From the NCBI GenBank assembly GCA_964628095.1, contig CAZVLR010000002.1, positions 12,795-76,794 of the forward strand: a stretch of 64,000 bases of DNA, read 5' to 3'. The notes beneath the pieces are model-generated. The model was given only the letters and a program-made list of their open reading frames with translations. It had not been told where the DNA came from and ran no database searches. Source of the stretch: an uncultured Candidatus Saccharibacteria bacterium. GTDB taxonomy: Bacteria; Patescibacteriota; Minisyncoccia; Minisyncoccales; CAZVLR01. The position numbers were made by a program, and so were the translations under genes. Below are positions 3,394 through 54,870 of the stretch, one piece after another. How positions within the stretch are numbered: the first letter of the stretch is position 1; the number at the start of each line of letters is the position of its first letter.

Positions 3394-3739
3394 TGGTGGA
3401 GGTGAAGGGATTCGAACCCTTGTGCAAAAATATTCTCCAAGACAACGCTACAAACTTAGCCCGATTTGGTATCAGTAGAAAGTATTAATCGGACCAAATC
3501 TTTCTACTTTTTGGTCAAGATTTTGATAGTCTTTTGACCGGAAAGAGCTACCTATCTCGATTGATATAACACCAGATTTTAATTATCGAGAATTGCTAAA
3601 ACCCGATGTGCTTTAAGCGTATGCTAAAGCAGGAGCTTGAAATAAGTTGGCACTTATATCAGTTTCCGAAGGTTTTACGAGCTTTCGGAGCTCGGTTTGA
3701 TTGTTTTGGGTCGGATTTTTGTCGATTCCTGAACACCCC
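3394..3739 (-). ncRNA. ssrA: tmRNA (SsrA)
   Basis: Minus-strand 5' end is GGGGUGUUCAGGAAUCGAC and 3' end is GGGUUCGAAUCCCUUCACCUCCACCA (tRNA-like acceptor/T arm with CCA). The internal tag frame GCC AAC UUA UUU CAA GCU CCU GCU UUA GCA UAC GCU UAA encodes ANLFQAPALAYA* (3651..3613). It lies directly downstream of smpB. Confidence 0.9.
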
Positions 3740-3768: not shown

Positions 3769-4218
3769 TTATTCTTTTAACGATCGCTCAATTTCCCGGT
3801 TAATCTCTTTTTTCTTAATCAGATCCCTCTTATCTTTCTTTTTCAAGCCTTTGGCCACGCCAAACTCTAGCTTAATTTTTCCTCCCTTAATATACACTTT
3901 TAAGGGTACAAAAGTCAAGCCTTGTTGGTTGGCCTTGCCAATGAGGTATTTTATCTCAGATTTCTTTAAAAGCAGCTTGCGTGATCTTTCCGGGTTATAA
4001 TCAGAGGGTGTGTTTTTAGGCTGATAGGGTGGAACTTGGCAGCCGACCAGAAAAACCTCTTCGTTTTTTAACACCACATAGCAGCCCGATAAGTTCATTC
4101 GGCCCAATTTTATCGATTTTACTTCGTGGCCCAAAAGGCTGATGCCGGCTTCAAATTTCTCTAAAATCTCGTAGTTAAAATACGCCTTTTTGTTTTCAGT
4201 GATTGGTTTAATATTCAT
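3769..4218 (-). CDS. smpB: SsrA-binding protein SmpB
   Basis: KKAYFNYEILEKFEAGISLLGHEVKS and a basic C-terminal tail typical of SmpB. Adjacent to tmRNA. Confidence 0.95.
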   Translation of the reverse strand: MNIKPITENKKAYFNYEILEKFEAGISLLGHEVKSIKLGRMNLSGCYVVLKNEEVFLVGCQVPPYQPKNTPSDYNPERSRKLLLKKSEIKYLIGKANQQGLTFVPLKVYIKGGKIKLEFGVAKGLKKKDKRDLIKKKEINREIERSLKE

Positions 4219-4297: not shown

Positions 4298-5893
4298 ATG
4301 ATAAGGCAAAAAGTTGCAAAATCAATTGAGCAGGCCATAAAAGAGCTCCAAAAAGAGGGTTTTTTGCCAAAACTCCCAGTTTTAAATTTAGAGATCAAGG
4401 AATCGCAAAAGGAAATTTACGGCGATTACGCTTCAAGTGTTGCCTTAAAAATAGCTAAAATCACAAAAAAACAGCCCCTAGAGGTCGCCGAAAAAATATC
4501 TCACAATATAAAAAGAAAAAATAAGGACTTTTTCAATCAGATTGAGGTGATAAAACCCGGCTTTATCAATTTTTTTATTTCTCAAAAACAATTAAGAAAA
4601 GAATTGGGCGAGGCTTTAGCAGGGGGAGAGAATTTTGGGAAATTAACAGCCGGCAAGAAAATTAAAGCTAACGTAGAGTTTATTTCTGCTAACCCTACCG
4701 GCCCCCTTCATATTGGCAATGGCCGGGGTGCTTTTTTCGGAGATTGCCTGGCTAATATTTTAGCTTTTGCGGGCTTCAAAGCTTATAGGGAGTATTATGT
4801 AAACGATACTAAAAACAGCACGCAAATTTTAGAATTAGGAAAAACCGCTTTGGACCAGGGCCAATCTTACCTTTCACCGTACTTAGAATCTTTGATTTTA
4901 AAGTTAAAACCGCATCTTAAAAAGATAAAATCAGAAAGCGAAGCCGGATTTTTTGTGGCTCAGAATATTTTGGGCGACATTAAGAAATTTGTTTCTGAAA
5001 AACTTAAGATAAAAATTGATTTTTGGATTCAGGAACATAATTTATTCCGCCAGGATAAGGTAAAGAAAATCTACGATACTTTAAAGAAAAAAAATCTGAT
5101 TTATGAAAAAGACAAGGCTACGTGGTTAAAGCTCGATGCTTTTGACCTGGAAGACGGGGTATTGTTAAGAGAAAACGGCCAGCCAACATATTTTTTATCA
5201 GATATTGCCTACCACAAAGATAAAATAGACAGGGGGTTTAAAAAAATAATAGATATTTGGGGCGCCGATCATCAGGGGCACGTGCCGCGCATGAAGGCGG
5301 TAATGAAAATTCTGGGGTTTAAAGGGGAGTTTGATATTTTGATCAGCCAGATGGTTCAGTTAGAGGGCGAAAAGATTTCCAAGAGAGCCGGAAAAATTAT
5401 CTTGTTGGAAGACTTGGTTGATGCGGTCGGCCTGGATGCGGTGAAATTCTTTTATTTAATGAAATCTTTAAACACTCAAATGAGCTTTAATCTGGCCTTG
5501 GCCAAAGAAAAGTCACAAAAAAATCCGGTTTTTTACGTTCAATACGCCCATGCCAGAATCTGTAGCATTTTAAAAAAGGGTAAAACAGATAGTCTGAAAT
5601 TTAACACAAAATATTTAGAGTTTTTGGAACATCCTTCGGAAATAAAACTAATGAGAAAGATTATTCAATTGCCAGAAATTATTGAAGACACGGCCAAGGA
5701 TTATCAATTACAAAGATTGCCCCAGTATGCTTTGGAATTAGCGGAATCTTTTCATAGTTTTTACCGCGATTGCTATGTTTTATCCAAAGATAAAAACTTA
5801 GCCCAGGCGCGTTTGTTGTTGGCTTTTTGCGCCAAGAACACCTTAAAAACAACCTTAAACCTAATGGGAATTCAGGCGCCCGAGAAGATGTAA
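4298..5893 (+). CDS. argS: arginine--tRNA ligase
   Basis: SANPTGPLHIGNGRGA (HIGH region) and ISKRAGK (KMSKS-like), plus the ArgRS C-terminal anticodon-binding region. Confidence 0.95.
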   Translation: MIRQKVAKSIEQAIKELQKEGFLPKLPVLNLEIKESQKEIYGDYASSVALKIAKITKKQPLEVAEKISHNIKRKNKDFFNQIEVIKPGFINFFISQKQLRKELGEALAGGENFGKLTAGKKIKANVEFISANPTGPLHIGNGRGAFFGDCLANILAFAGFKAYREYYVNDTKNSTQILELGKTALDQGQSYLSPYLESLILKLKPHLKKIKSESEAGFFVAQNILGDIKKFVSEKLKIKIDFWIQEHNLFRQDKVKKIYDTLKKKNLIYEKDKATWLKLDAFDLEDGVLLRENGQPTYFLSDIAYHKDKIDRGFKKIIDIWGADHQGHVPRMKAVMKILGFKGEFDILISQMVQLEGEKISKRAGKIILLEDLVDAVGLDAVKFFYLMKSLNTQMSFNLALAKEKSQKNPVFYVQYAHARICSILKKGKTDSLKFNTKYLEFLEHPSEIKLMRKIIQLPEIIEDTAKDYQLQRLPQYALELAESFHSFYRDCYVLSKDKNLAQARLLLAFCAKNTLKTTLNLMGIQAPEKM

Positions 5894-15986: not shown

Positions 15987-18074
15987 TTATTCCAAATGGA
16001 TTCTTTCTCCAAAATTCTTCAAGCCCTCTTTTAAAGAGGGGTGTTTTTTAAAACTAGGATCTGATTTTATCATTTCTTTAGCGGCTTCTTGGGTTTTTTC
16101 CACTAATAAAACATCAGTTAAAGAAGCCATGGTTAGGTCGGGAATGCCCCACTGTCTAATGCCATCAAGCGAGCCCGGGCCGCGAATTGCTAAATCTTTT
16201 TCAGCCAATTTGAAGCCATCTTCGGAGGATACCACAGCCTTCAATCTTTGGCTGGTTTTTGAAACCGGTGAATCGGTAAAAAGTAGGCAATAAGATTGAT
16301 GCTTTGATCTTCCTACCCGGCCCCGGAATTGGTGCAGTTGAGCCAGGCCAAATCTTTCAGCGTCTTCGATCATCATGACGGTGGCGTTAGGTATGTCAAC
16401 TCCTACTTCCACTACCGAGGTGGATACGAGAATATTGATTTCTCCCCTTTTAAAATTATTCATAACAGCTTCTTTTTCGGAAGACTTCATTTTTCCGTGA
16501 AGCATGGCAATTTTTAAGTCAGGAAAAACAACCTCTGAAAGTTTTTGGTATTCTTCCTTTACCGCTTTTACTTCGGCCCAAGAAGTAAGCCGGGCGCTTG
16601 CTTCAATGCGCGGACAGATGACAAAAATCTGATAGCCCAATTTCACCTGTTCTTTTATAAATTGATAAGCCATGGTTCTTTTTTCTGGGCCAACGATTTG
16701 GGTGAATATTTTTTTTCTACCCTGAGGTAGTTCGTTAATAATCGATAAATCCAGGTCGCCAAAAATAGTTAGAGTTAGGGTGCGGGGGATGGGGGTGGCC
16801 GTCATTGATAATAAGTGGGGAATGAATTTTTTCTGCTGGCAAAGGTGAGCCCGTTGTTGAACGCCAAAACGGTGTTGTTCATCCAGAATTACCAGGGCCA
16901 AATTATCGAATTTTATTTCTTTTTGAATTAAGGCATGAGTGCCAATGAGAATGTCCAACTCCCCGCTTTTTATTTTCTCTAACAGCTTCTTTCTGGTGCT
17001 GATTACAATTTCTTTTAGATCTTTTGAAAACAGGCGGTTATCTTTTCCGGTAACCAGGCCAATACTTACGTTAAAATCTTTTAATAATTCAAAAACCGTT
17101 TTAAAATGCTGTTTGGCCAGAATTTCGGTTGGCGCCATAAAGGCTGTTTGGTAGCCGGTTTTTACCGTATTTAAAGCAGCCATTGTGGCTACTACAGTTT
17201 TACCTGATCCCACATCTCCCTCGAGCAGCCTGTTCATGGGTCGCGGTTTTTCCAAATCTTTTAAAATCTGCCAGCCGGTTTTTTTCTGAGCATTGGTTAG
17301 TGGCCAAGGTAGACGTTTTACAAAATCTTTGATTAACTCCAGCTGAATGGGTAGAGCAATTGCCTTTTGGGCTTTAATTTTTTGCCTTTCCTTTTGTACA
17401 AAGAGCGAGATAAAAAACAGTTCTTCAAAGGAAAAGCGATCTTCCGCTTTTTTTGCCAGACCTTTGGAATCGGGAAAATGCACCTGCCAAAGCGCCTGGC
17501 TTAGGGGAATTAAGGAGAATTTTTTTAAAAATTCTGGTGGTAGCGGATCGGTTATACTGTTTTTTAAATTGGTTAAAATCGGCTTTATAATAAACCTAAG
17601 CCAGCGAGAAGATAGTCCGGCGGTTTCTGGGTACATTGGTACAATGCGGCCGGTGTGGGTTAAGTCGGCCGAAAGCTTTTCGTAAATGGGGTTGGAAAAA
17701 TAAAAATCCTTTTCTTTTTTGATTAGTTTTCCGGCCAGGCAAATGCTGTCGCCCACTTTTAAGGTCTTGGTTAAATAGGGTTGGTTAAACCAGATTATTT
17801 TTAAGATTCCGGATTTATCCTGTATTATCCCTTGGGTGAGAAACATTCTTTTTTTCCAAGTTCTGATGTTTTTAATTTCAGTTATTGCTCCTTGTATGCA
17901 TGCGGCTTCGTTAAGCTGTAACCGGGAAATAGGAACAATATTAGAAAAGTCCTCATAGCGGTGGGGAAAGTGGTAAAGCAGATCCCGGACGTTTTTAATG
18001 CCCAGCCTTTTCAACTTTTTTTGGTAAGCCGGGCCGACCCGAGAAAGTTGTTCAACCGGGGTTGAAAGCTCCAT
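15987..18074 (-). CDS. recG: ATP-dependent DNA helicase RecG
   Basis: Walker A GDVGSGKT, DEQHRFG, the N-terminal wedge region VGPAYQKKLKRLGI..DLLYHFPHRYED, and helicase motif VI QLHQFRGRVGR. Confidence 0.95.
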   Translation of the reverse strand: MELSTPVEQLSRVGPAYQKKLKRLGIKNVRDLLYHFPHRYEDFSNIVPISRLQLNEAACIQGAITEIKNIRTWKKRMFLTQGIIQDKSGILKIIWFNQPYLTKTLKVGDSICLAGKLIKKEKDFYFSNPIYEKLSADLTHTGRIVPMYPETAGLSSRWLRFIIKPILTNLKNSITDPLPPEFLKKFSLIPLSQALWQVHFPDSKGLAKKAEDRFSFEELFFISLFVQKERQKIKAQKAIALPIQLELIKDFVKRLPWPLTNAQKKTGWQILKDLEKPRPMNRLLEGDVGSGKTVVATMAALNTVKTGYQTAFMAPTEILAKQHFKTVFELLKDFNVSIGLVTGKDNRLFSKDLKEIVISTRKKLLEKIKSGELDILIGTHALIQKEIKFDNLALVILDEQHRFGVQQRAHLCQQKKFIPHLLSMTATPIPRTLTLTIFGDLDLSIINELPQGRKKIFTQIVGPEKRTMAYQFIKEQVKLGYQIFVICPRIEASARLTSWAEVKAVKEEYQKLSEVVFPDLKIAMLHGKMKSSEKEAVMNNFKRGEINILVSTSVVEVGVDIPNATVMMIEDAERFGLAQLHQFRGRVGRSKHQSYCLLFTDSPVSKTSQRLKAVVSSEDGFKLAEKDLAIRGPGSLDGIRQWGIPDLTMASLTDVLLVEKTQEAAKEMIKSDPSFKKHPSLKEGLKNFGERIHLE

Positions 18075-18075
18075 G

Positions 18076-18148
18076 TGCCCTCGGCAGGAATCGAACCTGC
18101 AGTCTCAAGGTCCGCAACCTTGCATTTTATCCATTAAACTACGAGGGC
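18076..18148 (-). tRNA. tRNA-Arg (anticodon GCG)
   Basis: Acceptor GCCCTCG/CGAGGGC, anticodon stem CAAGG/CCTTG, loop TTGCGGA, T arm GCAGG-TTCGATT-CCTGC, discriminator A. CCA not encoded. 73 nt. Confidence 0.85.
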
Positions 18149-18159
18149 TGGTATTGTTA

Positions 18160-18188
18160 ATTCTAAAATAAAATTAAGCTTAATTCAA
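18160..18188 (-). promoter_or_regulatory. sigma70-like promoter for tRNA-Arg(GCG)/recG
   Basis: Minus strand reads TTGAAT (18188-18183), 17 nt, TAGAAT (18165-18160). The tRNA 5' end lies 11 nt downstream. Confidence 0.5.
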
Positions 18189-22155: not shown

Positions 22156-22232
22156 GCCCTCGTAGCTCAACTGGATAGAGCAGCTCCGTCCTAAGGAGAA
22201 GGTTAGGGGTTCAACTCCTCTCGAGGGCACCA
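22156..22232 (+). tRNA. tRNA-Arg (anticodon CCT)
   Basis: Acceptor GCCCTCG/CGAGGGC, D arm GCTC-AACTGGATA-GAGC, anticodon loop GTCCTAA, T arm AGGGG-TTCAACT-CCTCT. CCA encoded. Confidence 0.9.
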
Positions 22233-22240
22233 AAAATTTT

Positions 22241-24495: not shown

Positions 24496-24525
24496 ATTAA
24501 AACCCCCTACACGGGGGAATTCTCC

Positions 24526-24554
24526 ATGCTAGCATATGCTTTCGTTCCTGTCAA
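24526..24554 (-). promoter_or_regulatory. sigma70-like promoter of the 3D-domain gene
   Basis: Minus strand reads TTGACA (24554-24549), 17 nt, TAGCAT (24531-24526). Confidence 0.55.
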
Positions 24555-24600: not shown

Positions 24601-24672
24601 AGCGGGTGAAGGGAATTGAACCCTCTTCTCATCCTTGGCAAGGATGTATAATAGCCGGTATACGACACCCGC
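24601..24672 (-). tRNA. tRNA-Gly (anticodon GCC)
   Basis: Acceptor GCGGGTG/CACCCGC, anticodon stem CATCC/GGATG with loop TTGCCAA, T arm GAGGG-TTCAATT-CCCTT, discriminator T. Confidence 0.9.
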
Positions 24673-24686
24673 TTACTTTAAATATG

Positions 24687-24760
24687 TGCCGCGGGCCAGA
24701 CTTGCACTGGCGACCTCTTCTTTTTCAGAGAAGCGCATCTACTACCTGAGCTACCGCGGC
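24687..24760 (-). tRNA. tRNA-Phe (anticodon GAA), non-canonical T-loop and irregular D-stem
   Basis: Acceptor GCCGCGG/CCGCGGC, anticodon stem CTTCT/AGAAG with loop CTGAAAA, T arm GCCAG-TGCAAGT-CTGGC. The D region GCTCAGGTAGTAGATGC pairs only if one T is bulged. Confidence 0.75.
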
Positions 24761-24770
24761 TGGGTTTTAT

Positions 24771-24842
24771 TGGGCGGTGAAGGATTTGAACCTACGGCCT
24801 TCTCGGTGTAAACGAGACGCTCTGCCGCTGAGCTAACCGCCC
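24771..24842 (-). tRNA. tRNA-Val (anticodon TAC)
   Basis: Acceptor GGGCGGT/ACCGCCC, D arm GCTC-AGCGGCA-GAGC, anticodon stem TCTCG/CGAGA with loop TTTACAC, T arm GTAGG-TTCAAAT-CCTTC. Confidence 0.9.
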
Positions 24843-24843
24843 A

Positions 24844-24929
24844 TGGTGCGGACGGTGGGAGTCGAACCCACATGCCATTTCTGGCACAGAGCCTCAGTCT
24901 GTTGCGTATACCGGTTCCGCCACGTCCGC
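24844..24929 (-). tRNA. tRNA-Leu (anticodon GAG)
   Basis: Acceptor GCGGACG/CGTCCGC, anticodon stem ACAGA/TCTGT with loop CTGAGGC, long variable arm, T arm GTGGG-TTCGACT-CCCAC. CCA encoded. The 5' end touches the rplS stop codon. Confidence 0.9.
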
Positions 24930-25340
24930 TTATTGCGCGCTTTCTACAGTGGGCGCCTCCACTGCTTCCGGCTCCTCCTGAACAACAGCTTGCGCGAATT
25001 CCTGCTTTTTCAAACGGGCTTTTTTGCCCCGAGTCTGCCTTAAATAGTAAAGCTTGGCTCTTCTTACCTTGCTTCTTTTTACTATTTCAATTTTGGAGAT
25101 TAAGGGCGAGTAGAGCGGATATATTTTTTCAACGCCCACGCCTGAAATCACCTTTCTTACGGTAATAGTCGAGCCGATTTCTTTTCCGTGCTTTCGGGCA
25201 ATCACCAGGCCTTCAAAAACTTGGACTCTTTGCTTTTCCCCCTCTTTTATCTTTTGGTGCACGCGTACGGTATCGCCCGGCCTGATATCGGGCATGTTTT
25301 TAATATATGGCTTTAAAATGTTATCGGTTTTTGTAATCAT
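24930..25340 (-). CDS. rplS: 50S ribosomal protein L19 (with acidic C-terminal extension)
   Basis: [34 protein letters not shown]... is the L19 core. Its ATG overlaps the upstream gene's TGA (ATGA). Confidence 0.95.
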
Positions 25341-26035
25341 ATGTTTTTGATAGCATTTTTTAATTCTGTTGGCAAGTCTGAGCGGAATTCTTTTTCCTCT
25401 CCTTTTGGGGTGGCTATTTTAAGGGAAAAGGCGTGCAGGAACTGGCGGGTTAGGCCTTCGGGCTCCGGCTGGTTTTTAAAGCCGTAAAGCGGGTCTTTAA
25501 CAATGGGGTGGCCCAAATAGGCCAAATGGGTACGGATTTGGTGCTTTCTACCGGTTTTGGGCAAAACCTCAAGCAGAGTGTAATCTTTGAATTTTTCAAC
25601 TGTTTTATACTCGGTAATCGCCTCTCTTTTGTTTTCCGCCTTGGGTTGGCCGGCCAGATATACTTTTTGTTTCCGCCGGTCGCTCGGGGCGCGGCCGATT
25701 AGGGTTTCAATTCTACCCGAATCGTTCTTTACTTGTCCCACCACCAAAGCCAGATATTTTTTTTCAACTTTGTTATCTTGAAACTGCTTTTGGAAAAATT
25801 CCAAAGTTTGGCTGTTTTTTGCCACCAGCAAGATGCCAGAAGTGTCTTTGTCCAAGCGGTGAATAATTCCGTATCTTGGGGCTTTTCCCGCATTTTTTAT
25901 TTCAGGGAATTTTTCTATTAGGTAATCGATTAAGGTTTTTTCTGAAATTGCTTCGTTTTCCGGGAAAACCGTAAGGCCGGCTGGCTTATTAACAACCAAA
26001 AAATCCTGATCTTGGTATAGGATGTTTAATTCCAT
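25337..26035 (-). CDS. RluA-family pseudouridine synthase (RluD-like, no S4 domain)
   Basis: LVVNKPAGL and the catalytic [15 protein letters not shown], plus KxYxALV. Confidence 0.9.
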
Positions 26036-26036
26036 G

Positions 26037-26110
26037 TGGGCGGTATAGGACTTGAACCTATAACCTTTCGCACGTCAAGCGAACGCTCTAGCCAATTGAG
26101 CTAACCGCCC
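26037..26110 (-). tRNA. tRNA-Val (anticodon GAC)
   Basis: Acceptor GGGCGGT/ACCGCCC, anticodon stem TTCGC/GCGAA with loop TTGACGT, T arm ATAGG-TTCAAGT-CCTAT, discriminator A at 26037. CCA not encoded. Confidence 0.9.
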
Positions 26111-26117
26111 CCTCTGA

Positions 26118-26190
26118 TGCGCCTGGATGGGATCGAACCATCGACCCCCACTTTATAAGAGTGGTGCTCTAACCACTGAGCTACAGGCGC
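26118..26190 (-). tRNA. tRNA-Ile (anticodon TAT)
   Basis: Acceptor GCGCCTG/CAGGCGC, D arm GCTC-AGTGGTTA-GAGC, anticodon stem CCACT/AGTGG with loop CTTATAA (34-36 = TAT), T arm GATGG-TTCGATC-CCATC. Confidence 0.8.
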
Positions 26191-26205
26191 TTTAAATTTA
26201 AAAAC

Positions 26206-28071
26206 TTAAAGCTTGGCCTTTTTTGGTGCGGATGATTCTTTTTCCGATTTGAACTGTGTTTTTATTAATTTCTCAAATTCTTCCCTTTCAATGGTTTCCT
26301 TTTCTATTAAAGTGTGGGCCACCTTGTGCAGCAGCTCTTTTTTCTTAAGCAGTATTTTCTCGGCCGACTTCTGGGCTTCTTCAATAAATTTAGCCACTTC
26401 TTTGTCGATTTTAGCCGCTACCTCTTCTGAATAATTCCTTTGGTCGGAAATCTCCCGGCCCAAGAATACCATTTCTTCCTTGTCGCCAAAAGCAATCGGG
26501 CCCAAGGACGACATGCCGTATTCTTTTACCAGTTTTCGGGCTAATTCCGAAGCTTTTCCTAGATCGTTGGAAGCGCCGGTAGTCAGCTCGTTGAATTTAA
26601 TTTTCTCGGCCGTGTAGCCGCCCAATAAAGTGGCTAATTCGGCTAAGAACTCGGTTTTGGTTGTAATTCTTCTTTCTTCGGTTGGCATTTTTAAAGTATA
26701 ACCTGCGGCCATGCCCCGGGCGATAATGGAAATTTTCCTGATAGGTTCGGCTCCGGGGGAGAAGGTAGATACCAACGCGTGGCCGGCTTCGTGAAAAGCG
26801 GCAATCTCTTTTTCCCTTTTGGAAAGCACGTGGCTTTTTCTTTCCGGTCCCAGCAGGGTTTTATCGATTGATTCCAGCATTTCGTCTTGGAACACCTGGG
26901 TTTTGTTTCTTCTGGCTGCTAATATCGCCGCTTCGTTTACTAAATTAGCCAAATCCGCGCCTGAAAAGCCCGGCGTTCTTTCGGCGATCTCCCGCAAATT
27001 AATATTTAAAGATAAGGGTTTGCCCTTGCAGTGGATTTTCATAATTTCTTCTCGGTCGTTTACATCGGGTAAGTCCAGCACTACCCGGCGGTCGAATCTT
27101 CCCGGTCTTAACAGGGCCGGATCTAAAACGTCGGGCCGGTTGGTAGCGGCAAAAATCAAAACCGTTGATTCTTTTTCAAAGCCGTCCATTTCCACCAAGA
27201 TTTGGTTTAAAGTTTGTTCTCTTTCGTCGTGTCCACCGCCAATGCCCGTGCCTCTAACTCGGCCAATGGCATCCAGTTCGTCAATAAAAATAATGCTGGG
27301 CTGGTGTTTTTTGGCCGTATTGAATAGGTCTCGAGTTCTGGCCGCACCTACGCCTACAAATAGCTCTACTAATTCCGAACCGGCAGTAGAAAAGAAAGGT
27401 ACGCCGGCTTCTGCAGCTACAGCTCGGGCCAGTAAGGTCTTACCCGTGCCCGGGGGGCCCATTAAGATAACACCCTTGGGGATTCGGGCGCCCATTTCAA
27501 GAAACTTTTTGGGGTTTTTAAGAAAGTCCACCACTTCCGCCAGCTCTTCTTTGGCTTCTTTTAAGCCAGCCACGTCTTTGAAAGTAATTTTATCTTTGGA
27601 ATGGCCTTCGGCGCCAAAAAGCCGGGCTCGGGCTTTGGTAAAATCAAAAGCCTGCATGGTGCCGGTTTTGGCCTGCCTAAAAATCATAAAAAAGAAAACA
27701 ATGAATACCAGTAAGGGAAGTACAAAAATTAAAATCGGACCTAGCCAGGTGGTCCAACCACTTTCGTTTTTAGTTTCAATTTGTACTGCTTTTAATTTGT
27801 CTTGGCTTACGCCGTAGTTAATAAGCGATTCTGATAAAGAGCTTTCGGTTTCTTTTCGGGCATTGACCTTGGAATCATCCTGATAGGTGATCTGCATGTC
27901 GTTTCCCGAAACCGTAATGCTTTTAATCTTGCCCTGGTTTATTTCTTCAACCAGTTGCGTCAGCGACAGCACCTTTTTATCTTCAAAAGGAGAGGAAACC
28001 AAAGTAAAAATCGCTGAGATTGCCAGGAAAACCAGAATTACAATTATGAAATTTTTTAATAACGCGTTCAT
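26206..28071 (-). CDS. ftsH: ATP-dependent zinc metalloprotease FtsH
   Basis: Two N-terminal TM segments, AAA+ Walker [16 protein letters not shown], Walker [12 protein letters not shown], and the zinc motif HEAGHAL. Confidence 0.95.
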
Positions 28072-28078
28072 TTGAGTA

Positions 28079-28111
28079 ATTATAATATATCACAGATTTA
28101 TAAAATTTCAA
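28079..28111 (-). promoter_or_regulatory. promoter region abutting the ftsH start
   Basis: Minus strand reads TTGAAA (28111-28106) ... TGTGATATATTATAAT. TATAAT (28084-28079) is followed by 7 nt and then ATG 28071. No SD. Confidence 0.4.
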
Positions 28112-29974: not shown

Positions 29975-30625
29975 ATGCAGATTATTTGGCACGGACAATC
30001 TTTTTTTGAAATTATCGCCGGTCGCGCAAAGAACGGCCAGGTGGTTTTGGTTATAGATCCTTTTTCAGAGGAGATCGGTTTAAGATTCCCCAAGGTGTCA
30101 GCCGATATCGTGGCTGTTACCAGCGATTTGCCCGATCATAACAACGCAAAAGCGGTGGCGGGAAACTCTAATGAAGCCCCGTTTTTAATTTCGGGCCCGG
30201 GCGAATACGAAGTAAAAGAAATTTACATCCAGGGGATTTTGAGCAATAAAAACAATGGCAAGGAAAACACGATTTTTACCATTAAAGCTGAGGATTTAAA
30301 AATCTGCCACTTGGGCGATTTGGCCCAAAAAGAGTTGACTTCTGAACAGGTAGAGCAGATTGGCGACGTTGATGTTTTAATGATTCCCGTGGGCGGGAAC
30401 AATACCATCGATGGCAAGGAGGCTTTAAAAATCATGTCCCAAATAGAGCCCAAAATTATCATACCCATGCATTACATGCTGCCCAAATTAAAAACGAAAT
30501 TGGAAGACGCTGATAAGTTTTTAAAATCCGTAGGCGTGAAAAAAGTTGAGCCCTTGCCCAAGCTGACTATTAAGAAAAAAGACATATCCGAGGAAGAAGT
30601 AAAGATTATTATTTTAAAACCTTAA
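29975..30625 (+). CDS. MBL-fold metal-dependent hydrolase (UPF0173-like)
   Basis: MQIIWHGQSFFEI N-terminus, the ...SDLPDHNN, HLGDL and IPMHY pattern, and about 216 aa. Confidence 0.75.
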   Translation: MQIIWHGQSFFEIIAGRAKNGQVVLVIDPFSEEIGLRFPKVSADIVAVTSDLPDHNNAKAVAGNSNEAPFLISGPGEYEVKEIYIQGILSNKNNGKENTIFTIKAEDLKICHLGDLAQKELTSEQVEQIGDVDVLMIPVGGNNTIDGKEALKIMSQIEPKIIIPMHYMLPKLKTKLEDADKFLKSVGVKKVEPLPKLTIKKKDISEEEVKIIILKP

Positions 30626-34004: not shown

Positions 34005-34352
34005 ATGAAAAAGATACTTTTTTACGCTTTCATTCTGACTTTTTTACTGGCCCTGCCTTTGCCTTTTTTAAATCAGGCTTTTGGGGCTCAGATTACAATT
34101 CCTAATCCTTTAAATTATGACTCTGTTGAAGAGTTAATTAAGGCGATCATTGATTTTCTGTGGACCCTGGCCTTGGTTTTAGTTCCTCTTTTGGTGGTAA
34201 TTGCGGGCTTTTTGTTTATTACCGCCGGCGGGGATCCCCAGAAGGTAACTAACGCCAAAAGAATGATCACTTATATTATTGTCGGTTTTTTGGTTATTGC
34301 CTCGGCCAAAGGCCTAATTACTTTAATTCAAACAGTAATTAATAAAAAGTAA
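34005..34352 (+). CDS. VirB2/TrbC-like (T4SS pilin-like) small membrane protein, copy 1 (most divergent)
   Basis: Signal peptide (..AFGA/Q), two TM helices joined by the loop ITAGGDPQKVTNAKR. 115 aa. Confidence 0.6.
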   Translation: MKKILFYAFILTFLLALPLPFLNQAFGAQITIPNPLNYDSVEELIKAIIDFLWTLALVLVPLLVVIAGFLFITAGGDPQKVTNAKRMITYIIVGFLVIASAKGLITLIQTVINKK

Positions 34353-34363
34353 ATAACAATTAT

Positions 34364-34708
34364 ATGATAAAAAAATATTATTTGTCGTTAATATTAATAC
34401 TTTTAGCCATACCGTCGGTTTATTCGGCACAAAACAATGCAGGATACAACAACGTAGCTCCGCCCAACATAAGTTCACAGGGCATGTGGAATCTATTAGA
34501 TAAGATTATCAGTTACCTCTTCGGCATCTTTTTAGCGTTTGCTGTTATCTTTTTTATCATCGCTGCTTTTAACTTTATCACCGCTCAGGGCGAGCCCGAA
34601 AAAGTAAAAAGAGCCCGAGACTTTGTTCTTTGGGCGTTAATCGGTGTGCTGGTGGCTTTTGTTTCAAGGGGCTTAATCGAATTTATTAAGGGCCTAGTGG
34701 GCTCTTAA
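34364..34708 (+). CDS. VirB2/TrbC-like small membrane protein, copy 2
   Basis: Signal peptide (..VYSA/Q), TM1, FNFITAQGEPEKVKRARDFVLWALIG, TM2. Confidence 0.6.
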   Translation: MIKKYYLSLILILLAIPSVYSAQNNAGYNNVAPPNISSQGMWNLLDKIISYLFGIFLAFAVIFFIIAAFNFITAQGEPEKVKRARDFVLWALIGVLVAFVSRGLIEFIKGLVGS

Positions 34709-34740
34709 AAGTTTATTAATATTAAATAATCTTAATAAAA

Positions 34741-35055
34741 ATGAAAAAACATTTATTCTTAATTGCTTTATTATTGATATCGCCTTTAATGGTGGCAGCG
34801 GCAGAGACAATCCCAGATGTTGATATTTTTAAACTACTTACCAATATTACCAATTATCTTTTTGGTATATTACTGGCTACAGCGGTAATTTTCTTTATTA
34901 TAGCCGGGTTTAATTTTGTCACTGCTCAGGGCGATCCTGAAAAGGTAAAAAGAGCCCGGGATTTTGTTTTGTGGGCCATAATTGGTTTATTGGTAGCCTT
35001 TGTTTCAGTGGGCCTGGTTAACTTTATTAAAGCATTAGCAGAAAGTAGTAAATAA
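34741..35055 (+). CDS. VirB2/TrbC-like small membrane protein, copy 3
   Basis: Signal peptide (..VAAA/E), TM1, FNFVTAQGDPEKVKRARDFVLWAIIG, TM2. Confidence 0.6.
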   Translation: MKKHLFLIALLLISPLMVAAAETIPDVDIFKLLTNITNYLFGILLATAVIFFIIAGFNFVTAQGDPEKVKRARDFVLWAIIGLLVAFVSVGLVNFIKALAESSK

Positions 35056-35099
35056 CAAAAATAAAAAGGTCGAAACTTATACATTAAAGGAATAAAAAT

Positions 35100-35444
35100 A
35101 TGAAAAAAATATTACCATATTTAACGAGTATTTTGGTGGCACTGCCCATTATTGTTTCGGCACAAAATGCCTATACTCCAACTTATCCGCCCAAGCCCGA
35201 TATTTGGCTTTTACTTAATACGATTATTGCCTGGTTGTTTGGAATTTTACTTATCGTTGCTGTTATCTTTTTGATTATTGCCGGCTTTTTCTTTATTACC
35301 GCCCAGGGAGATCCGGATAGAGTTAAAAAAGCGAGAGACTTTGTATTGTGGGCAATTATTGGTATTTTGGTAGCTTTTGCCGCTCGCGGTTTGGTTTGGT
35401 TTGTGAATCAATTAGTTAGTACTAGCAGTATTCCGGGCGCTTAG
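35100..35444 (+). CDS. VirB2/TrbC-like small membrane protein, copy 4
   Basis: Signal peptide (..IVSA/Q), TM1, FFFITAQGDPDRVKKARDFVLWAIIG, TM2. Confidence 0.6.
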   Translation: MKKILPYLTSILVALPIIVSAQNAYTPTYPPKPDIWLLLNTIIAWLFGILLIVAVIFLIIAGFFFITAQGDPDRVKKARDFVLWAIIGILVAFAARGLVWFVNQLVSTSSIPGA

Positions 35445-52073: not shown

Positions 52074-53396
52074 ATGATACCAAGATACACTAGAAAAGAC
52101 ATGGGAGAAATCTGGTCAGATTTCAACAAATTCAGAAAGTGGTTTGATGTAGAGCTTGCTATTTTAAAAGCTAAAGAAGAATTGAGAATTGTGCCTTTTG
52201 GCACCGCGGAAAAGGTGAGAGAAAGCGCGGGTATTTCCATTAATCGTATTGAGGAACTGGAAAAAACCACCGGCCACGATGTAATGGCTTTTGTGCAGTC
52301 GATCTCAGAACAGTTAATCAAAAAAGGTCTGGCAGAGCAGGCGCAGCATTTTCATGCGGGCATGACGTCTTATGATATTTTAGACACTGCCTTAGCGGTA
52401 TCGATGCGCGATTCGATAAAGCTGTTAAGGACCGGCCTGAACGAATTGCTGGTTGTTTTAGGGGCAAATTGCCTGGCTCACAGAGATACGATTCAAATCG
52501 GTCGTACCCATGGCATACACGCTGAGCCGATTACCTTCGGCTTTAAGATGGTCAATTGGTACGACGAATTGGAGCGGCACGAAGAACGATTGGGAATTCT
52601 GAGGGAAAGAATTTCTGTGGGCAAGATTTCTGGCGCGGTTGGCACTTATGCCAATATCGATCCTGCGATTGAAGATCTTGCCTGTGAAATGCTCGCCTTA
52701 AAACCGGCGCGCATCAGCACGCAGATAATTTCTCGCGATCGGCATGCCGAATATGTTTTTACTTTGGCTTTAATTGCCGGTTCTTTGGCCAAATTCGCCA
52801 TTGAGATCAGGAATCTGCAGCGTACTGAAATTGATGAAGTGTCAGAGCCCTTTAAAAAAGGGCAAAAGGGCAGTTCGGCTATGCCTCACAAGCAGAACCC
52901 AATCGCTTCGGAAAATATTTCTTCTTTAACGCGTTTGATGCGGGGTTTTGTGCAAGTGGCATTGGAAAACCAGGAAACTTGGCACGAGCGCGATATAGCC
53001 AATTCGGCCAATGAAAGAATAATTCTGGCCGATAGCTCGATACTGTTAGACTACATGCTGGCCCGCCTTACCAACATACTGAGAAACTGGACGGTAAAGA
53101 CTTCTAAAATGGAAGACAATTTGTGGTTGTCTCAGGGCCGTATTTTTTCCGAACAGGTAATGCTGGCCTTGGCTCAAAAGGGGATGCCGCGGGAAGAGGC
53201 GCACGATTTAGTTCAGGAGCTAGCCTTGCTCTCGGCTAAAATTAATTCTCCCTTTAAAGATTTACTCTGGGAAGACCCAAGGATAAAAAAACTTTTAACC
53301 CAGGAAGAGCTGGAAGGGTGTTTTAAGCCCGAAGACCAGCTGAAAAACATTAAAAAAATCTATGACAGATTCATTTTTAGAATAGGAGGGCCCTAA
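52074..53396 (+). CDS. purB: adenylosuccinate lyase
   Basis: MIPRYTRKDMGEIWSD N-terminus and the signature GSSAMPHKQNP. SD-led (ACAGGAGGAAGGCTTT-ATG). Confidence 0.9.
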   Translation: MIPRYTRKDMGEIWSDFNKFRKWFDVELAILKAKEELRIVPFGTAEKVRESAGISINRIEELEKTTGHDVMAFVQSISEQLIKKGLAEQAQHFHAGMTSYDILDTALAVSMRDSIKLLRTGLNELLVVLGANCLAHRDTIQIGRTHGIHAEPITFGFKMVNWYDELERHEERLGILRERISVGKISGAVGTYANIDPAIEDLACEMLALKPARISTQIISRDRHAEYVFTLALIAGSLAKFAIEIRNLQRTEIDEVSEPFKKGQKGSSAMPHKQNPIASENISSLTRLMRGFVQVALENQETWHERDIANSANERIILADSSILLDYMLARLTNILRNWTVKTSKMEDNLWLSQGRIFSEQVMLALAQKGMPREEAHDLVQELALLSAKINSPFKDLLWEDPRIKKLLTQEELEGCFKPEDQLKNIKKIYDRFIFRIGGP

Positions 53397-53398
53397 CC

Positions 53399-53929
53399 GT
53401 GGAAGAAAAACAAATATCCGTTGCGATTATTATCGGTAGCGAATATGATTTTCCGCTTGTCGAGCAATCAGGCATGCTTGGAGTTCTTGACCAAATGAAG
53501 ATTGCCTGGGAGCTGTCTGTTATTTCAGCGGACCGAAACCCCCAAGAGCTTCATGATTATTGCATTGTTGCCAAGCGGCGGGGAGTCGTAGTCTTTATCG
53601 GGGCCGCAGGCATGTCGGCTAAGTTACCTGCTGCTATTGCTGTTTATACCGGCTATAAAACTCCGGTGATCGGCGTGGCTCTGCCTAGCGAAGATTTTCC
53701 CAATAGCCTCGATGCTTTATTTACCATTGTGCGCCAGCCGGGCGGTTGTCCGGTTATCTGTTCGGGCATTGGCAAGGCCGGTTTAAAAAATGCCGCTTTG
53801 ATTGCCTGCCAGATACTTTGTACTGGAAATGACGAACGCTCGTGCAAAACTTACTCAGATTTCTCGGCATATCTTAAAAGAAATCAAAAAACCCCACAAA
53901 TCCCATTAAAGGAAGGAGAAGCCTCATGA
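53399..53929 (+). CDS. PurE-like protein (AIR carboxylase/N5-CAIR mutase fold) with substituted conserved histidines
   Basis: By eye it aligns with E. coli PurE as I recall it: VAIIIGSEYD, FIGAAGMSAKLP, PVIGVAL, GIGKAGLKNAALIACQIL. SADRNP replaces SAHRTP and AAGMSAKLP replaces GAGGAAHLP. GTG start with SD AGGAGGG. Confidence 0.7.
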   Translation: MEEKQISVAIIIGSEYDFPLVEQSGMLGVLDQMKIAWELSVISADRNPQELHDYCIVAKRRGVVVFIGAAGMSAKLPAAIAVYTGYKTPVIGVALPSEDFPNSLDALFTIVRQPGGCPVICSGIGKAGLKNAALIACQILCTGNDERSCKTYSDFSAYLKRNQKTPQIPLKEGEAS

Positions 53930-54870
53930 AGAACAATTCACCGATTTTACAGACAGATTTTCCCGAAAGAAAGCTTTTCTGGCGTGGCAAAGTGCGAGAC
54001 ACTTGGGAGATTCCCGAATTACCACCCGAAAAAACAAAGGACCGGCTTTTAATGATAACCACCGACCGGCTGTCCGCTTTTGACGTGGTTATGCCCCAAG
54101 GTGTGCCCGAGCTGGGAAAGCTGCGCAACCAGATTTCTCTTTTCTGGTTTGAATATTTCAAGCATGCTTTTCCAAACCACATTTTAAGCTCGGACCAGCT
54201 TTATTGCCAGGCTTTTGTACCCGGACATTCCGAATATGATTTATTGGGCCGATGCGCTTTAGTACACCGGGCGGAAGTTTTCCGGGTTGAATGCATTGTG
54301 CGGGGCCATCTTTCCGGTTCAGCCTGGAAAAGCTACAGGGAGAGCGGCACCATTTGCGGGTTAAAATATCCGGCCGGGCTTCAAGAATCGGATCATTTGC
54401 CTTACCCAATTTTCACCCCATCAACCAAATCAGATACGGGCCACGATGAGAACATCGATTTTGACACCATGGTTAATCTTTTGGGTAGCCACTTGGCCGA
54501 GCTCTTGAGGTCGGTTTCGCTGCAGATTTATACCAAAGCCGCAGCGTACGCCTTGGAATGCGGTATTATCATTGCTGATACCAAGTTTGAATTTGGCATT
54601 CGTCGGAACGATGGCAGAACTGTGCTGGTTGATGAATTGCTTACGCCCGACTCTTCCCGTTTTTGGCCTCTGGATGAATATAATCCCGGCGGGCCCCAAC
54701 CCAGTTTTGACAAGCAGTTTGTGCGGGATTACCTTGAATCGATTAAATGGAACAAGCAGCCGCCCGCGTCCAACTTGCCCGAATCAGTTATTGAGGGAAC
54801 AAGGCAGAGATATATTCAGGCCTATCAGATGTTAACCGGCATGACCTGGTGCTCTGAGCGCTTTGAATAG
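53926..54870 (+). CDS. purC: SAICAR synthetase (long form, 314 aa)
   Basis: GKVRDTWEI, LLMITTDRLSAFD and IIADTKFEFG motifs. SD GGAAGGAG upstream. Overlaps the upstream stop by 4 nt. Confidence 0.9.
   Translation: MKNNSPILQTDFPERKLFWRGKVRDTWEIPELPPEKTKDRLLMITTDRLSAFDVVMPQGVPELGKLRNQISLFWFEYFKHAFPNHILSSDQLYCQAFVPGHSEYDLLGRCALVHRAEVFRVECIVRGHLSGSAWKSYRESGTICGLKYPAGLQESDHLPYPIFTPSTKSDTGHDENIDFDTMVNLLGSHLAELLRSVSLQIYTKAAAYALECGIIIADTKFEFGIRRNDGRTVLVDELLTPDSSRFWPLDEYNPGGPQPSFDKQFVRDYLESIKWNKQPPASNLPESVIEGTRQRYIQAYQMLTGMTWCSERFE

Follow-up and report, generated by a model that had tools for sequence, protein, structure and literature searches.

A compact series of tRNA and protein-coding genes occupies positions 28071 to 24601 of the minus strand of the window, i.e. 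the whole stretch of 64,000 nucleotides analysed, which comes from a groundwater Parcubacteria/Paceibacteria (CPR) genome. On balance, the region is probably one mixed tRNA-mRNA operon, cut by RNase P and a 3' endonuclease, which would release an effectively leaderless rlu-rplS mRNA. The part of the arrangement that goes beyond chance is the fusion of an ATG to the end of a tRNA gene, which occurs twice in the window and is kept in relatives.

The anatomy of the locus was observed directly. tRNA genes were called by ARAGORN and by Rfam cmscan, with the discriminator set to the end of the Rfam match, and junctions were read from the sequence and the ORF list. Both finders agree on the six minus-strand tRNAs, all of which match Rfam RF00005 over its full length (model positions 1-71 of 71) with 53-75 bits, the gathering score being 29. 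Upstream of ftsH the promoter scan found TTGAAA, followed by TGaTATATTATAAT (28082..28111); the last base of its TATAAT is 7 nt from the ATG of ftsH, as expected of a leaderless or near-leaderless primary transcript, and the site is likely to be the start of the whole transcription unit. The ftsH gene (26206..28071; ORF, Pfam) encodes 621 aa with FtsH_ext, AAA, AAA_lid_3 and Peptidase_M41 domains, and stops with TAA at 26208-26206. An AT-rich spacer of 15 nt, GTTTTTAAATTTAAA (26191..26205), only 1-4 nt long in relatives L007, L008, L010 and L011, leads to tRNA-Ile(UAU) (26118..26190; 74.7 bits), which has a trailer starting with TCA in place of an encoded CCA. After 7 nt (TCAGAGG) follows tRNA-Val(GAC) (26037..26110; 70.3 bits), also without encoded CCA, with its discriminator A at 26037. 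A single C (26036..26036), equivalent to tRNA position 74, separates this base from the ATG (26035-26033) of rlu (25337..26035; ORF, Pfam, NCBIfam), encoding an S4-less RluA-family pseudouridine synthase of 232 aa; this start codon has neither SD nor 5'UTR.

The rlu and rplS genes share an ATGA overlap (25340-25337), which suggests translational coupling. The TAA (24932-24930) of rplS (24930..25340; ribosomal protein L19, 136 aa; ORF, Pfam) is followed, with 0 nt in between, by G+1 (24929) of tRNA-Leu(GAG), which spans 24929-24847 and has an encoded CCA at 24846-24844 (24844..24929 in all). One nucleotide, the T at 24843, precedes tRNA-Val(UAC) (24771..24842); tRNA-Phe(GAA) (24687..24760), with a trailer starting with CAT, follows after 10 nt, and tRNA-Gly(GCC) (24601..24672), the final gene of the unit, after a further 14 nt, the last four tRNAs being likewise called by ARAGORN and Rfam. 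The gene order and every coordinate that an earlier note on this DNA had given, from ftsH to tRNA-Gly, are reproduced by ARAGORN, Rfam cmscan and the ORF map; the covariance model check of tRNA boundaries confirmed the six tRNAs, and the junctions of 0-15 nt stand.

Promoter-like sites flank the ftsH-to-tRNA-Gly unit. Past the tRNA array, the first promoter-like site (TTGACA-17-TAGCAT, 24554-24526) and the first terminator-like hairpin (TCCCCCGTGTAGGGGG + TTTT, 24518-24503), found by the promoter/terminator scan at 24503..24554 (minus), adjoin the ATG of the next gene at 24495 and probably mark where the unit ends, where the next one begins, or both. Between 26206 and 24600 the same scan detected no terminator-like site on the minus strand, and no promoter-like match other than two weak ones (9/12) within coding sequence (25739-25710 and 25363-25336), in line with the earlier note, which had seen neither terminator nor promoter pair between the units. 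The promoter scan gave 7 matches in all, in the range expected by chance (5.1 +/- 2.2), and the weak match within rlu at 25739-25710 could be the source of some rplS mRNA. A separate promoter for the tRNAs in the 3' end of ftsH was considered and rejected: its last 90 nt hold no -10-like hexamer in the window and in 8 of 9 relatives, the exception, L012, having one TACAAT 79 nt 5' of tRNA-Ile. The earlier note had taken both coding segments to be bracketed by tRNAs, which applies to rlu-rplS but not to ftsH, since a promoter-like site of its own precedes the latter and a 3' trailer of 15 nt follows it.

Conservation in relatives was also observed directly. The order ftsH-Ile-Val-rlu-rplS-Leu-Val-Phe-Gly is kept in L007-L012, whose synthases are 49-59% identical, and the order rlu-rplS-Leu-Val-Phe-Gly in the more distant L014, L015 and L022. 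The discriminator lies 1 nt from the rlu ATG in L007, L008, L010, L027 and L092 (tRNA-Val(GAC)) and L030 (tRNA-Ala(UGC)), and 2 nt from it in L013 (tRNA-Val(UAC)), L022 (tRNA-Leu(UAG)) and L032 (tRNA-Glu(UUC)); five different tRNA species are thus found 1-2 nt before rlu. Distances of 4, 5 and 7 nt occur in L011, L029 and L047, and wider ones, of 13-100 nt, in L043, L009, L026, L028, L012 and L016. At the tRNA-Glu/rlu junction of L032 the DNA reads A-CC-ATG, the A of CCA being the A of ATG, which is the only CCA/ATG overlap found at the DNA level. A similar overlap at recG, derived from back-translation of the extended proteins P0007 and P0025, was discarded, the DNA of L107 and L108 reading G-CA-ATG and A-CT-ATG.

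The opposite side of the mRNA, where the stop codon abuts the 5' end of a tRNA, is less conserved. The gaps between the rplS stop and the tRNA in relatives are 0, 0, an overlap, 6, 9, 16, 27 and 165 nt; rplS of L008 ends with a complete TAG, and in L007 the reading frame meets its first stop 18 nt inside tRNA-Leu. The proposal of the earlier note, that mRNA ends are defined by tRNA processing, gains from the comparison with relatives for the 5' end of rlu-rplS, where the junction is conserved and a -10 box is not, and less so for the 3' end.

The second tRNA-ATG fusion of the window involves recG (15987..18074, minus; ORF, NCBIfam; 695 aa), whose ATG at 18074 is preceded by tRNA-Arg(GCG) (18076..18148, minus; ARAGORN, Rfam 71.2 bits), with its discriminator A at 18076 and a C at 18075. 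The junction, A-C-ATGGA, is identical to that between tRNA-Val and rlu, with 1 nt between discriminator and ATG. The sole promoter-like site seen in the sequence for this pair, TTGAAT-17-TAGAAT (18160..18188, minus), lies 5' of the tRNA and ends 11 nt from its G+1. In relatives, recG starts 1 nt past tRNA-Arg in L109 and 2 nt past it in L104, L107 and L108, the four RecG proteins showing 62-67% identity; the spacing grows to 39 nt in L103 and to 58 nt in L105, and L106 has no tRNA. A TTGAtT...TGATAAt-like element is kept 5' of tRNA-Arg in the recG relatives, and no conserved promoter-like element was found between tRNA-Arg and recG, either in the window or in relatives. The same kind of tRNA-ATG junction recurs at other genes, at 2 nt in L014 and at 4 nt in L037. 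A third, looser case in the window, on the plus strand, consists of tRNA-Arg(CCU) (22156-22229; ARAGORN, Rfam), its encoded CCA (22230-22232) and 8 nt, AAAATTTT (22156..22240 in all), followed at 22241 by the ATG of a VanW-domain protein without SD. A protein-database query for further tRNA-fused gene families with a 40-aa translated-tRNA peptide (the N-terminal extension of P0017) gave no candidates.

Since spacing at rlu and recG varies among relatives, abutment is not obligatory, and the comparison of junction lengths suggested in the earlier note gives a divided result, with 1-2 nt in many genomes and longer spacers, or no tRNA, in others. The variation, from 1 to about 100 nt, agrees with a purely neutral compaction, by which abutment would be a by-product of deletion bias and would have no part in setting the mRNA 5' end, rlu and recG being either translated by SD-independent internal initiation on any transcripts or poorly expressed. 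The genome is indeed densely packed (median CDS-to-CDS gap about 6-11 nt, coding density about 0.93, tRNA-to-tRNA gaps 1-22 nt) and SD motifs are absent from most of its genes anyway; because short gaps of 0-15 nt are the norm, tight packing alone is not unusual and deletion bias contributes to it. Compaction does not account, however, for the sharp peak at 1-2 nt, reached with five tRNA species at rlu, with tRNA-Arg at recG and at two unrelated ORFs; abutment to several tRNA species means that the junction was made afresh at each change of tRNA. Poor expression is also unlikely, rlu and recG being conserved housekeeping genes. Taking these points together with the accessibility of the AUG, discussed below, neutral compaction alone seems an unlikely though not negligible explanation.

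The reading of the junctions depends on correct gene calls. The synthase matches PF00849 (PseudoU_synth_2) with E = 3.8e-35, and TIGR00005 with 199.3 bits against a cut-off of 192.7, which places it in the RluA family; the HRLDKDTSG motif, with the catalytic HRLD, is invariant in the aligned Rlu proteins. The label used in the earlier note, rluD-like, holds to the level of this family, but the protein falls short of the RluD equivalog (150 against 351 bits) and lacks the S4 domain, and the name RluD is unproven for it. Most of the 80 metagenome loci listed encode S4-containing RluD of other phyla without an upstream tRNA, and were used only as an outgroup.

Wrong start codons or pseudo-tRNAs might in principle have produced the junctions, as starts of recG differ between gene callers in relatives and some proteins carry N-terminal extensions of 16-38 residues. 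The RecG extensions are, however, the translated upstream tRNA gene; in alignments of 13 Rlu and of 26 RecG proteins the N-termini coincide at the Met proposed here, with conserved motifs beginning 2-5 residues further on, and RecG matches NCBIfam NF008165 from profile position 4. The alignment with relatives makes the rlu start codon secure. Junction tRNAs of relatives score 59-78 bits against the Rfam tRNA model, well over the gathering score, and an annotation artefact is hardly credible.

A different origin of the 5' end would be a promoter inside the tRNA gene, with a -10-like element in the T-arm/acceptor region driving a primary leaderless transcript from the ATG. At rlu, the hexamer at -12..-7, TATACC, matches TATAAT at 4 of 6 positions and has the spacing of a leaderless promoter; yet it lacks the conserved final T and a -35 partner, and the promoter scan made no call there. 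Relatives with the same junction read TCTACC, CTCAGT, AGTACC and ACCCGG at these positions, and recG reads TGCCGA. All these hexamers are tRNA sequence, and no conserved -10 box exists at -12..-7 of the junction ATGs in the window and its relatives, which leaves such a promoter highly improbable.

Translation of an mRNA beginning at the AUG would agree with other features of the genome. A TATAAT or TGnTATAAT is found 7-8 nt 5' of the ATG in ftsH and in the genes with starts at 39073, 40125 and 41263, and a TACAAT 8 nt 5' of those with starts at 13975 and 34005, counted from the last base of the hexamer; several genes with such a box are the first of their operons. An SD motif precedes only about 5 of 55 genes. 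Given these -10 boxes close to ATG and the scarcity of SD motifs, the genome appears competent for leaderless translation. The anti-SD motif has been detected in only 48% of Parcubacteria 16S rRNAs (PMC9297842).

In its junction context, tRNA-Val(GAC) forms an independent cloverleaf as the minimum-free-energy fold, the AUG starting 2 nt past the acceptor stem, whereas the first 50 nt of the rlu mRNA are not more structured than shuffled sequence (z = -0.4). In view of the mRNA channel of the ribosome, a tRNA folded so near the AUG should block initiation unless removed. Internal initiation on an unprocessed transcript, as neutral compaction would have it, meets the same obstacle, the 7-bp acceptor stem being rich in G+C.

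An encoded CCA is absent from 10 of the 15 tRNA genes of the window. CCA-less tRNAs have their 3' ends trimmed and CCA added, and the tRNAs encoded by these genes therefore need both steps. The 64 kb of the window were searched for genes of RNase Z, of the RNA and protein parts of RNase P and of the CCA-adding enzyme, and none was found; a Lactamase_B_3 protein at 29975-30625 is at most a putative RNase Z. In 12 of the 15 genes the discriminator is directly followed by C (position 74), and in Bacillus subtilis cytosines at 74 and 75 inhibit RNase Z. The RNase Z enzyme of this organism, or its specificity, may accordingly differ.

Both the lack of an RNase Z gene in the window and the unfavourable C at position 74 would also suit tRNA maturation coupled to mRNA decay, with no precise cut. 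In that case 3'-to-5' exonucleases, PNPase or similar, would make the tRNA 3' end by degrading the mRNA as a long trailer, and the sole templates for protein would be precursors, or molecules cut at another place, e.g. by RNase J or RNase Y near the AUG. In CPR, 90% or more of the genomes have kept PNPase, RNase J and RNase III (PMC12641178). A 5'-monophosphate mRNA would be a substrate of RNase J, which counts against a leaderless mRNA made by processing. Decay coupling, on the other hand, offers no reason for an ATG that stays within 1-2 nt of the discriminator in different lineages and with different tRNA species; uncut precursors would meet the steric block of the tRNA beside the AUG, and 1.1-2.1 kb of mRNA would be wasted for each tRNA matured. 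We consider it improbable.

According to the preferred reading, that of a punctuated operon, a single unit would comprise promoter, ftsH, tRNA-Ile, tRNA-Val, rlu, rplS, tRNA-Leu, tRNA-Val, tRNA-Phe and tRNA-Gly, with transcription beginning at the ftsH promoter, whose -10 box lies 7 nt from the ATG. The tRNAs would fold within the precursor and be excised, RNase P cutting the 5' end of each, and a 3' endonuclease, of RNase Z type or of like specificity, cutting at the discriminator or one base past it; the CCA-adding enzyme would then finish the CCA-less tRNAs. Cleavage at the 3' end of tRNA-Val(GAC) would make the 5' end of the rlu-rplS mRNA, pCAUG... or pAUG..., which, being effectively leaderless, would be translatable without SD. 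Translation of rplS would proceed by coupling at the ATGA overlap, and the RNase P cut at tRNA-Leu(GAG) would end the mRNA exactly at UAA. The same logic would apply to tRNA-Arg(GCG)-recG (18148-15987), with its sole promoter 5' of the tRNA. Co-transcription, enzymes, exact cut sites and mode of translation are all predictions from the DNA sequence.

As a broader and more tentative proposal, mitochondria-like punctuation may be a regular, selected mode of expression in Paceibacteria (CPR), one cut before the AUG yielding both a tRNA ending in N73-C74 (or C74-C75), ready for CCA addition, and a leaderless 5'-monophosphate mRNA.

tRNA punctuation in mitochondria was reportedly described by Ojala, Montoya and Attardi in 1981. 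The likeness lies in tRNAs flanking coding sequences with 0-2 nt (here 1 nt between tRNA-Val and rlu, 0 nt between rplS and tRNA-Leu and 1 nt between tRNA-Arg and recG), and, by prediction, in the polycistronic unit, the leaderless mRNA and the ends at RNase P and RNase Z sites. The present case differs in belonging to a bacterial chromosome with sigma-70-like promoters and many conventional operons, only some genes being punctuated. Its stop codons are complete, as the TAA of rplS, and polyadenylation is not needed to finish them; rlu-rplS stays bicistronic, with an ATGA overlap, and punctuation is here a prediction from DNA.

Among bacterial systems, the thrU-tyrU-glyT-thrT-tufB operon of E. 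coli similarly combines tRNAs and a protein gene on one strand under one promoter, the tRNAs being cut from a co-transcript that doubles as mRNA. There the coding sequence keeps a spacer of about 100 nt with an SD, whereas here the ATG lies 1-2 nt from the discriminator, without the 5'UTR and ribosome-binding site of its own that tufB has past its tRNAs, and processing itself would therefore have to create the translatable 5' end.

Primary leaderless mRNAs of Actinobacteria, Deinococcus and archaea share with the predicted rlu-rplS mRNA an AUG at, or a few nt from, the 5' end and SD-independent initiation. The -10 box that typically stands 7-8 nt from the ATG in their promoters is present in this genome at ftsH and several other genes, but not at rlu and recG; rlu would be leaderless in the functional sense, with the AUG no more than about 5 nt from the 5' end, what precedes its AUG being an acceptor stem and one C, with no SD and no usable 5'UTR. 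Leaderless mRNAs of Streptomyces and E. coli (PMC4681348) and of mycobacteria (PMC4633059) are described as primary transcripts only. Such mRNAs start with the triphosphate of transcription initiation, whereas the 5' end considered here would be a monophosphate, a product of processing from a tRNA.

In plant mitochondria, t-elements and other tRNA-like structures set mRNA ends, and tRNA-like elements are known in Haloferax. In these systems too RNase P and tRNase Z recognise a tRNA shape beside the mRNA and thereby fix its end, but the present elements are real, high-scoring tRNA genes, presumably used for decoding rather than mimics, in a bacterial host. RNase Z of Thermotoga maritima cuts past the encoded CCA; such a bacterial cut 3' of the discriminator would fit the A-C-AUG and A-CC-AUG junctions.

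A search of open-access papers and preprints found no earlier description of tRNA punctuation in bacteria, of leaderless mRNA made by processing, or, in CPR, of either leaderless mRNAs or RNase Z. To our knowledge, and within that search, accounts of translatable leaderless mRNAs made by tRNA excision are confined to mitochondria, and to tRNA-like elements of plant mitochondria and haloarchaea.

The junctions suggest that in this genome tRNA excision creates leaderless mRNA, much as in mitochondria, and the model predicts 5'-monophosphate mRNA ends at the AUG or 1 nt before it. If the broader proposal is true, tRNA punctuation and processing-generated leaderless translation would operate in a bacterial chromosome, and the housekeeping genes rlu-rplS and recG would be embedded in units driven by tRNA promoters, with their expression tied to tRNA transcription and maturation. 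The finding bears on gene annotation in CPR genomes, with one practical result already, the spurious N-terminal extensions, of translated tRNA origin, in several database RecG proteins. If confirmed, it would mean that bacterial tRNA excision can yield translatable leaderless mRNAs, which bears on gene expression in ultra-small CPR bacteria and on the origin of mitochondrial-type gene expression from bacterial parts.

Six minus-strand tRNA genes, on which ARAGORN and Rfam cmscan were concordant, lie between 26190 and 24601: tRNA-Ile(UAU) (26190-26118), tRNA-Val(GAC) (26110-26037), tRNA-Leu(GAG) (24929-24847, with an encoded CCA at 24846-24844), tRNA-Val(UAC) (24842-24771), tRNA-Phe(GAA) (24760-24687) and tRNA-Gly(GCC) (24672-24601). 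The end of each Rfam match was taken as the discriminator, i.e. the last tRNA base before CCA. All the junctions listed in the earlier note were borne out by the sequence and the ORF map. The ftsH stop codon TAA (26208-26206) is followed by 15 nt and tRNA-Ile, which a 7-nt spacer separates from tRNA-Val(GAC); a single C (26036) stands between the discriminator of the latter and the ATG, at 26035, of a pseudouridine synthase gene, here called rlu. This overlaps rplS by an ATGA (25340-25337), the rplS TAA (24932-24930) directly adjoins G+1 of tRNA-Leu, and the last four tRNAs are spaced by 1, 10 and 14 nt. Pfam and NCBIfam identified the proteins as FtsH, ribosomal protein L19 and a RluA-family pseudouridine synthase, lacking the S4 domain and scoring under the RluD equivalog cut-off. 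The source is a bacterium of the Parcubacteria/Paceibacteria (CPR) from groundwater, to which the closest named genome is Ca. Paceibacter normanii.

Coding density is about 0.93 in this genome, with a median gap of about 6-11 nt between coding sequences on the same strand; short gaps by themselves are not special here. A start codon just 1 nt past a tRNA discriminator is unusual; it leaves no space for a 5'UTR, a Shine-Dalgarno (SD) sequence or a promoter. The same junction, A-C-ATGGA, is found in a second place, where tRNA-Arg(GCG) (18148-18076, minus strand) is followed by a C and the recG ATG at 18074. In a third, looser case, tRNA-Arg(CCU), with encoded CCA, is followed after 8 nt by an ATG at 22241. 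CCA is encoded in 5 of the 15 tRNA genes of the window, and CCA-less tRNAs require 3' trimming and CCA addition. Since a C follows the discriminator in 12 of the 15, the single C preceding the rlu and recG start codons is most simply explained as tRNA position C74.

Comparison with loci from relatives (L numbers) revealed that the full order, from ftsH to tRNA-Gly, is kept in L007-L012, whose synthases are 49-59% identical to that of the window, and the portion from rlu to tRNA-Gly in the more distant Parcubacteria L014, L015 and L022. Counting from the ends of the Rfam tRNA matches, the rlu ATG is 1 nt past the discriminator of tRNA-Val(GAC) in L007, L008, L010, L027 and L092, and of tRNA-Ala(UGC) in L030; it is 2 nt past that of tRNA-Val(UAC) in L013, of tRNA-Leu(UAG) in L022 and of tRNA-Glu(UUC) in L032 (A-CC-ATG). 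Distances of 4, 5 and 7 nt occur in L011, L029 and L047, and range from 13 to about 100 nt in L043, L009, L026, L028, L012 and L016. As five different tRNA species adjoin the rlu start codon at 1-2 nt, the junction must have been re-created independently. The same arrangement was seen before two unrelated ORFs, at 2 nt in L014 and at 4 nt in L037.

The recG junction behaves similarly in relatives with about 65% RecG protein identity. The ATG is 1 nt past tRNA-Arg in L109, 2 nt past it in L104, L107 and L108, and 39 and 58 nt past a tRNA in L103 and L105; in L106 no tRNA is found upstream, and a TATAAT belonging to recG itself lies 11 nt from the start codon instead. The proposed Met is the common N-terminus in the Rlu alignment, and RecG N-termini also align at the proposed Met, so that the start codon assignments are secure. 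That the junctions merely reflect misannotation is hardly credible, being contradicted by these alignments and by the tRNA scores. Five database RecG proteins from Patescibacteria gene calls (P0007, P0017, P0019, P0025, P0092) are extended at the N-terminus by 16 to about 110 residues. In P0007, P0017 and P0025 the extensions correspond to the translated upstream tRNA-Arg gene and promoter region, as seen in the DNA of L107-L109, and the protein sequences of P0019 and P0092 suggest the same origin; the fusion of tRNA and ATG seems to have misled gene annotation in a systematic way. In the Rlu alignment, the synthases of the closest relatives (L007-L012) are about 45 residues short of the window protein and of more distant Parcubacteria, the missing part being residues ~24-70 of the window protein, with the EKFPEIKN stretch.

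The 3' side is less constrained than the 5' junction. The rplS stop adjoins tRNA-Leu (0 nt) in the window as it does in L008, and lies 6, 9, 16, 27 and 165 nt from it in other relatives. In L007, a Ca. Paceibacter normanii single-cell genome, rplS (4591-4968) runs into tRNA-Leu(GAG) (4951-5034), the first in-frame stop, a TAG, being 18 nt inside the tRNA, so that cleavage by RNase P would leave a non-stop rplS mRNA; alternatively, the missing stop may be a sequencing error. The proposal in the earlier note that tRNA processing sets the mRNA ends is partly supported, and is reinforced by the relatives at the 5' junction.

Further tRNA-related sequences were noticed around these loci. In L015 (Moranbacteria RIFOXYB1_FULL_43_19), the intact tRNA-Leu(UAG) is separated from the rlu ATG by a disrupted second tRNA-Leu(UAG)-like copy (3838-4000). 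This copy has an anticodon arm, a T arm interrupted by some 45 inserted nt, and an acceptor 3' strand, for which a matching 5' acceptor strand was not seen; as the 3' strand is followed by A-CA-ATG, the 3' portion of the tRNA has been retained at the start codon. Partial tRNA-like 5' halves (e.g. GCGCGTGTAGCTCAGCGGTAGAGCA...), possibly remnants of tRNA duplication or decay, are found directly upstream of the intact tRNA-Ile(UAU) in L009 (~2900-2975) and L012 (~3560-3636). Assorted small genes, resembling by eye VOC/glyoxalase, HIT, GNAT, NUDIX and glycosyltransferase families, interrupt the Leu-Val-Phe-Gly tRNA array of relatives or come right after tRNA-Val (L014 1794-4041; L008 3088, L023 675, L024 2161, L026 4476, L035 1017), and tRNA arrays may be places where accessory genes insert and are expressed.

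Two anticodons also deserve mention. GCG, in the tRNA-Arg at 18076-18148 (minus strand), was detected by ARAGORN also in L103, L104, L105 and L017; the usual bacterial anticodon is ACG, normally deaminated to inosine. UAU, in the tRNA-Ile at 26118-26190 (minus strand), is kept in L007-L012, L027, L029 and L092, whereas AUA is decoded in most bacteria by a tRNA-Ile2(CAU) modified to lysidine. TilS is perhaps not needed, and AUA decoding may proceed without it in this lineage.

A promoter and terminator scan found no terminator-like site on the minus strand from ftsH to tRNA-Gly, and only two weak promoter-like matches, both within coding sequence and at chance frequency. Promoter-like sites occur on either side of the unit. 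Ahead of ftsH, a TATAAT stops 7 nt short of the ATG. Beyond tRNA-Gly, a TTGACA-17-TAGCAT precedes the hairpin TCCCCCGTGTAGGGGG and TTTT (24503-24554, minus strand), the T-run being separated only by AAT from an ATG at 24495; this element may act as a terminator for the tRNA unit, as a hairpin stabilising the 5' end of the next mRNA, or in both roles. For recG, the sole promoter-like site lies 11 nt upstream of tRNA-Arg, and relatives have a similar element before the tRNA. A promoter within the tRNA gene itself is very unlikely: a TATACC is present at the right spacing in the window, but relatives lack it, and the -12 to -7 hexamers of tRNA-abutting start codons, in window and relatives, are tRNA sequence with no conserved -10 box.

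The genome is, by direct observation, poor in SD sequences and leaderless in character. GGAGG-like motifs precede only about five window genes (starts at 28659, 40731, 52074, 53399 and 53926), and an anti-SD motif was detected in just 48% of Parcubacteria 16S rRNAs (PMC9297842). Like ftsH, the genes starting at 39073, 40125 and 41263 have a TATAAT or TGnTATAAT that ends 7-8 nt ahead of their ATG, and those starting at 13975 and 34005 have a TACAAT at 8 nt, a spacing that marks primary leaderless mRNAs; operon-first start codons with a -10 box at 7-9 nt comprise these five and those at 28071 and 58347. The pattern implies, at the sequence level, that primary leaderless mRNAs would be common in this CPR genome. 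The strong SD genes at 52074-54870 (plus strand) are clustered, apart from those at 28659 and 40731; three are purB, purE and purC homologues, with a local G+C of 0.44-0.45 versus about 0.40, which could indicate horizontal acquisition or a different initiation mode. At 34005-35444 (plus strand), four tandem paralogues of 104-115 aa match PF18895 (T4SS_pilin).

Folding bears on how the rlu start codon may be reached. The tRNA-Val(GAC) cloverleaf is the minimum-free-energy fold in context, the rlu AUG begins 2 nt past its acceptor stem, and over its initial 50 nt the rlu mRNA has no more structure than shuffled sequences do. Neutral compaction would fit the shortness of gaps in general and the fact that spacing varies in some relatives; it is nevertheless unlikely, given the sharp peak at 1-2 nt, which recurs with many tRNA species and in several genes, and given that a folded tRNA only 2 nt away would probably make the AUG inaccessible. 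Less likely still is a coupling of exonucleolytic tRNA maturation to mRNA decay: PNPase, RNase J and RNase III are retained in CPR genomes (PMC12641178), but the conserved junction spacing would be left unexplained.

No description of this arrangement for bacteria or CPR was found in the literature searched, the coverage of which was incomplete, so that its absence is not proven. In tufB-type bacterial tRNA-protein operons a 5'UTR and an SD sequence, absent here, are kept; the 5' end of primary leaderless mRNAs is the transcription start, whereas here it is proposed to be a processing product. The closest likeness in working is mitochondrial tRNA punctuation with leaderless mRNAs, from which the present case differs in that its stop codons are complete, its message is bicistronic and other parts of the genome have ordinary promoters. 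The gene layout, its conservation and the lack of a promoter at the junctions are, like the SD-poor and leaderless character of the genome, direct observations. On balance, we infer, with slightly better than even confidence, a single mixed tRNA-mRNA unit, whose tRNAs would be cut out of a shared precursor by RNase P and a 3' endonuclease. Cleavage at the 3' end of tRNA-Val would give the rlu-rplS message a pCAUG or pAUG 5' end, to be translated as a leaderless mRNA, with rplS coupled to rlu through the ATGA overlap, and RNase P cleavage at tRNA-Leu would place the mRNA 3' end at the UAA; tRNA-Arg and recG would follow the same scheme.
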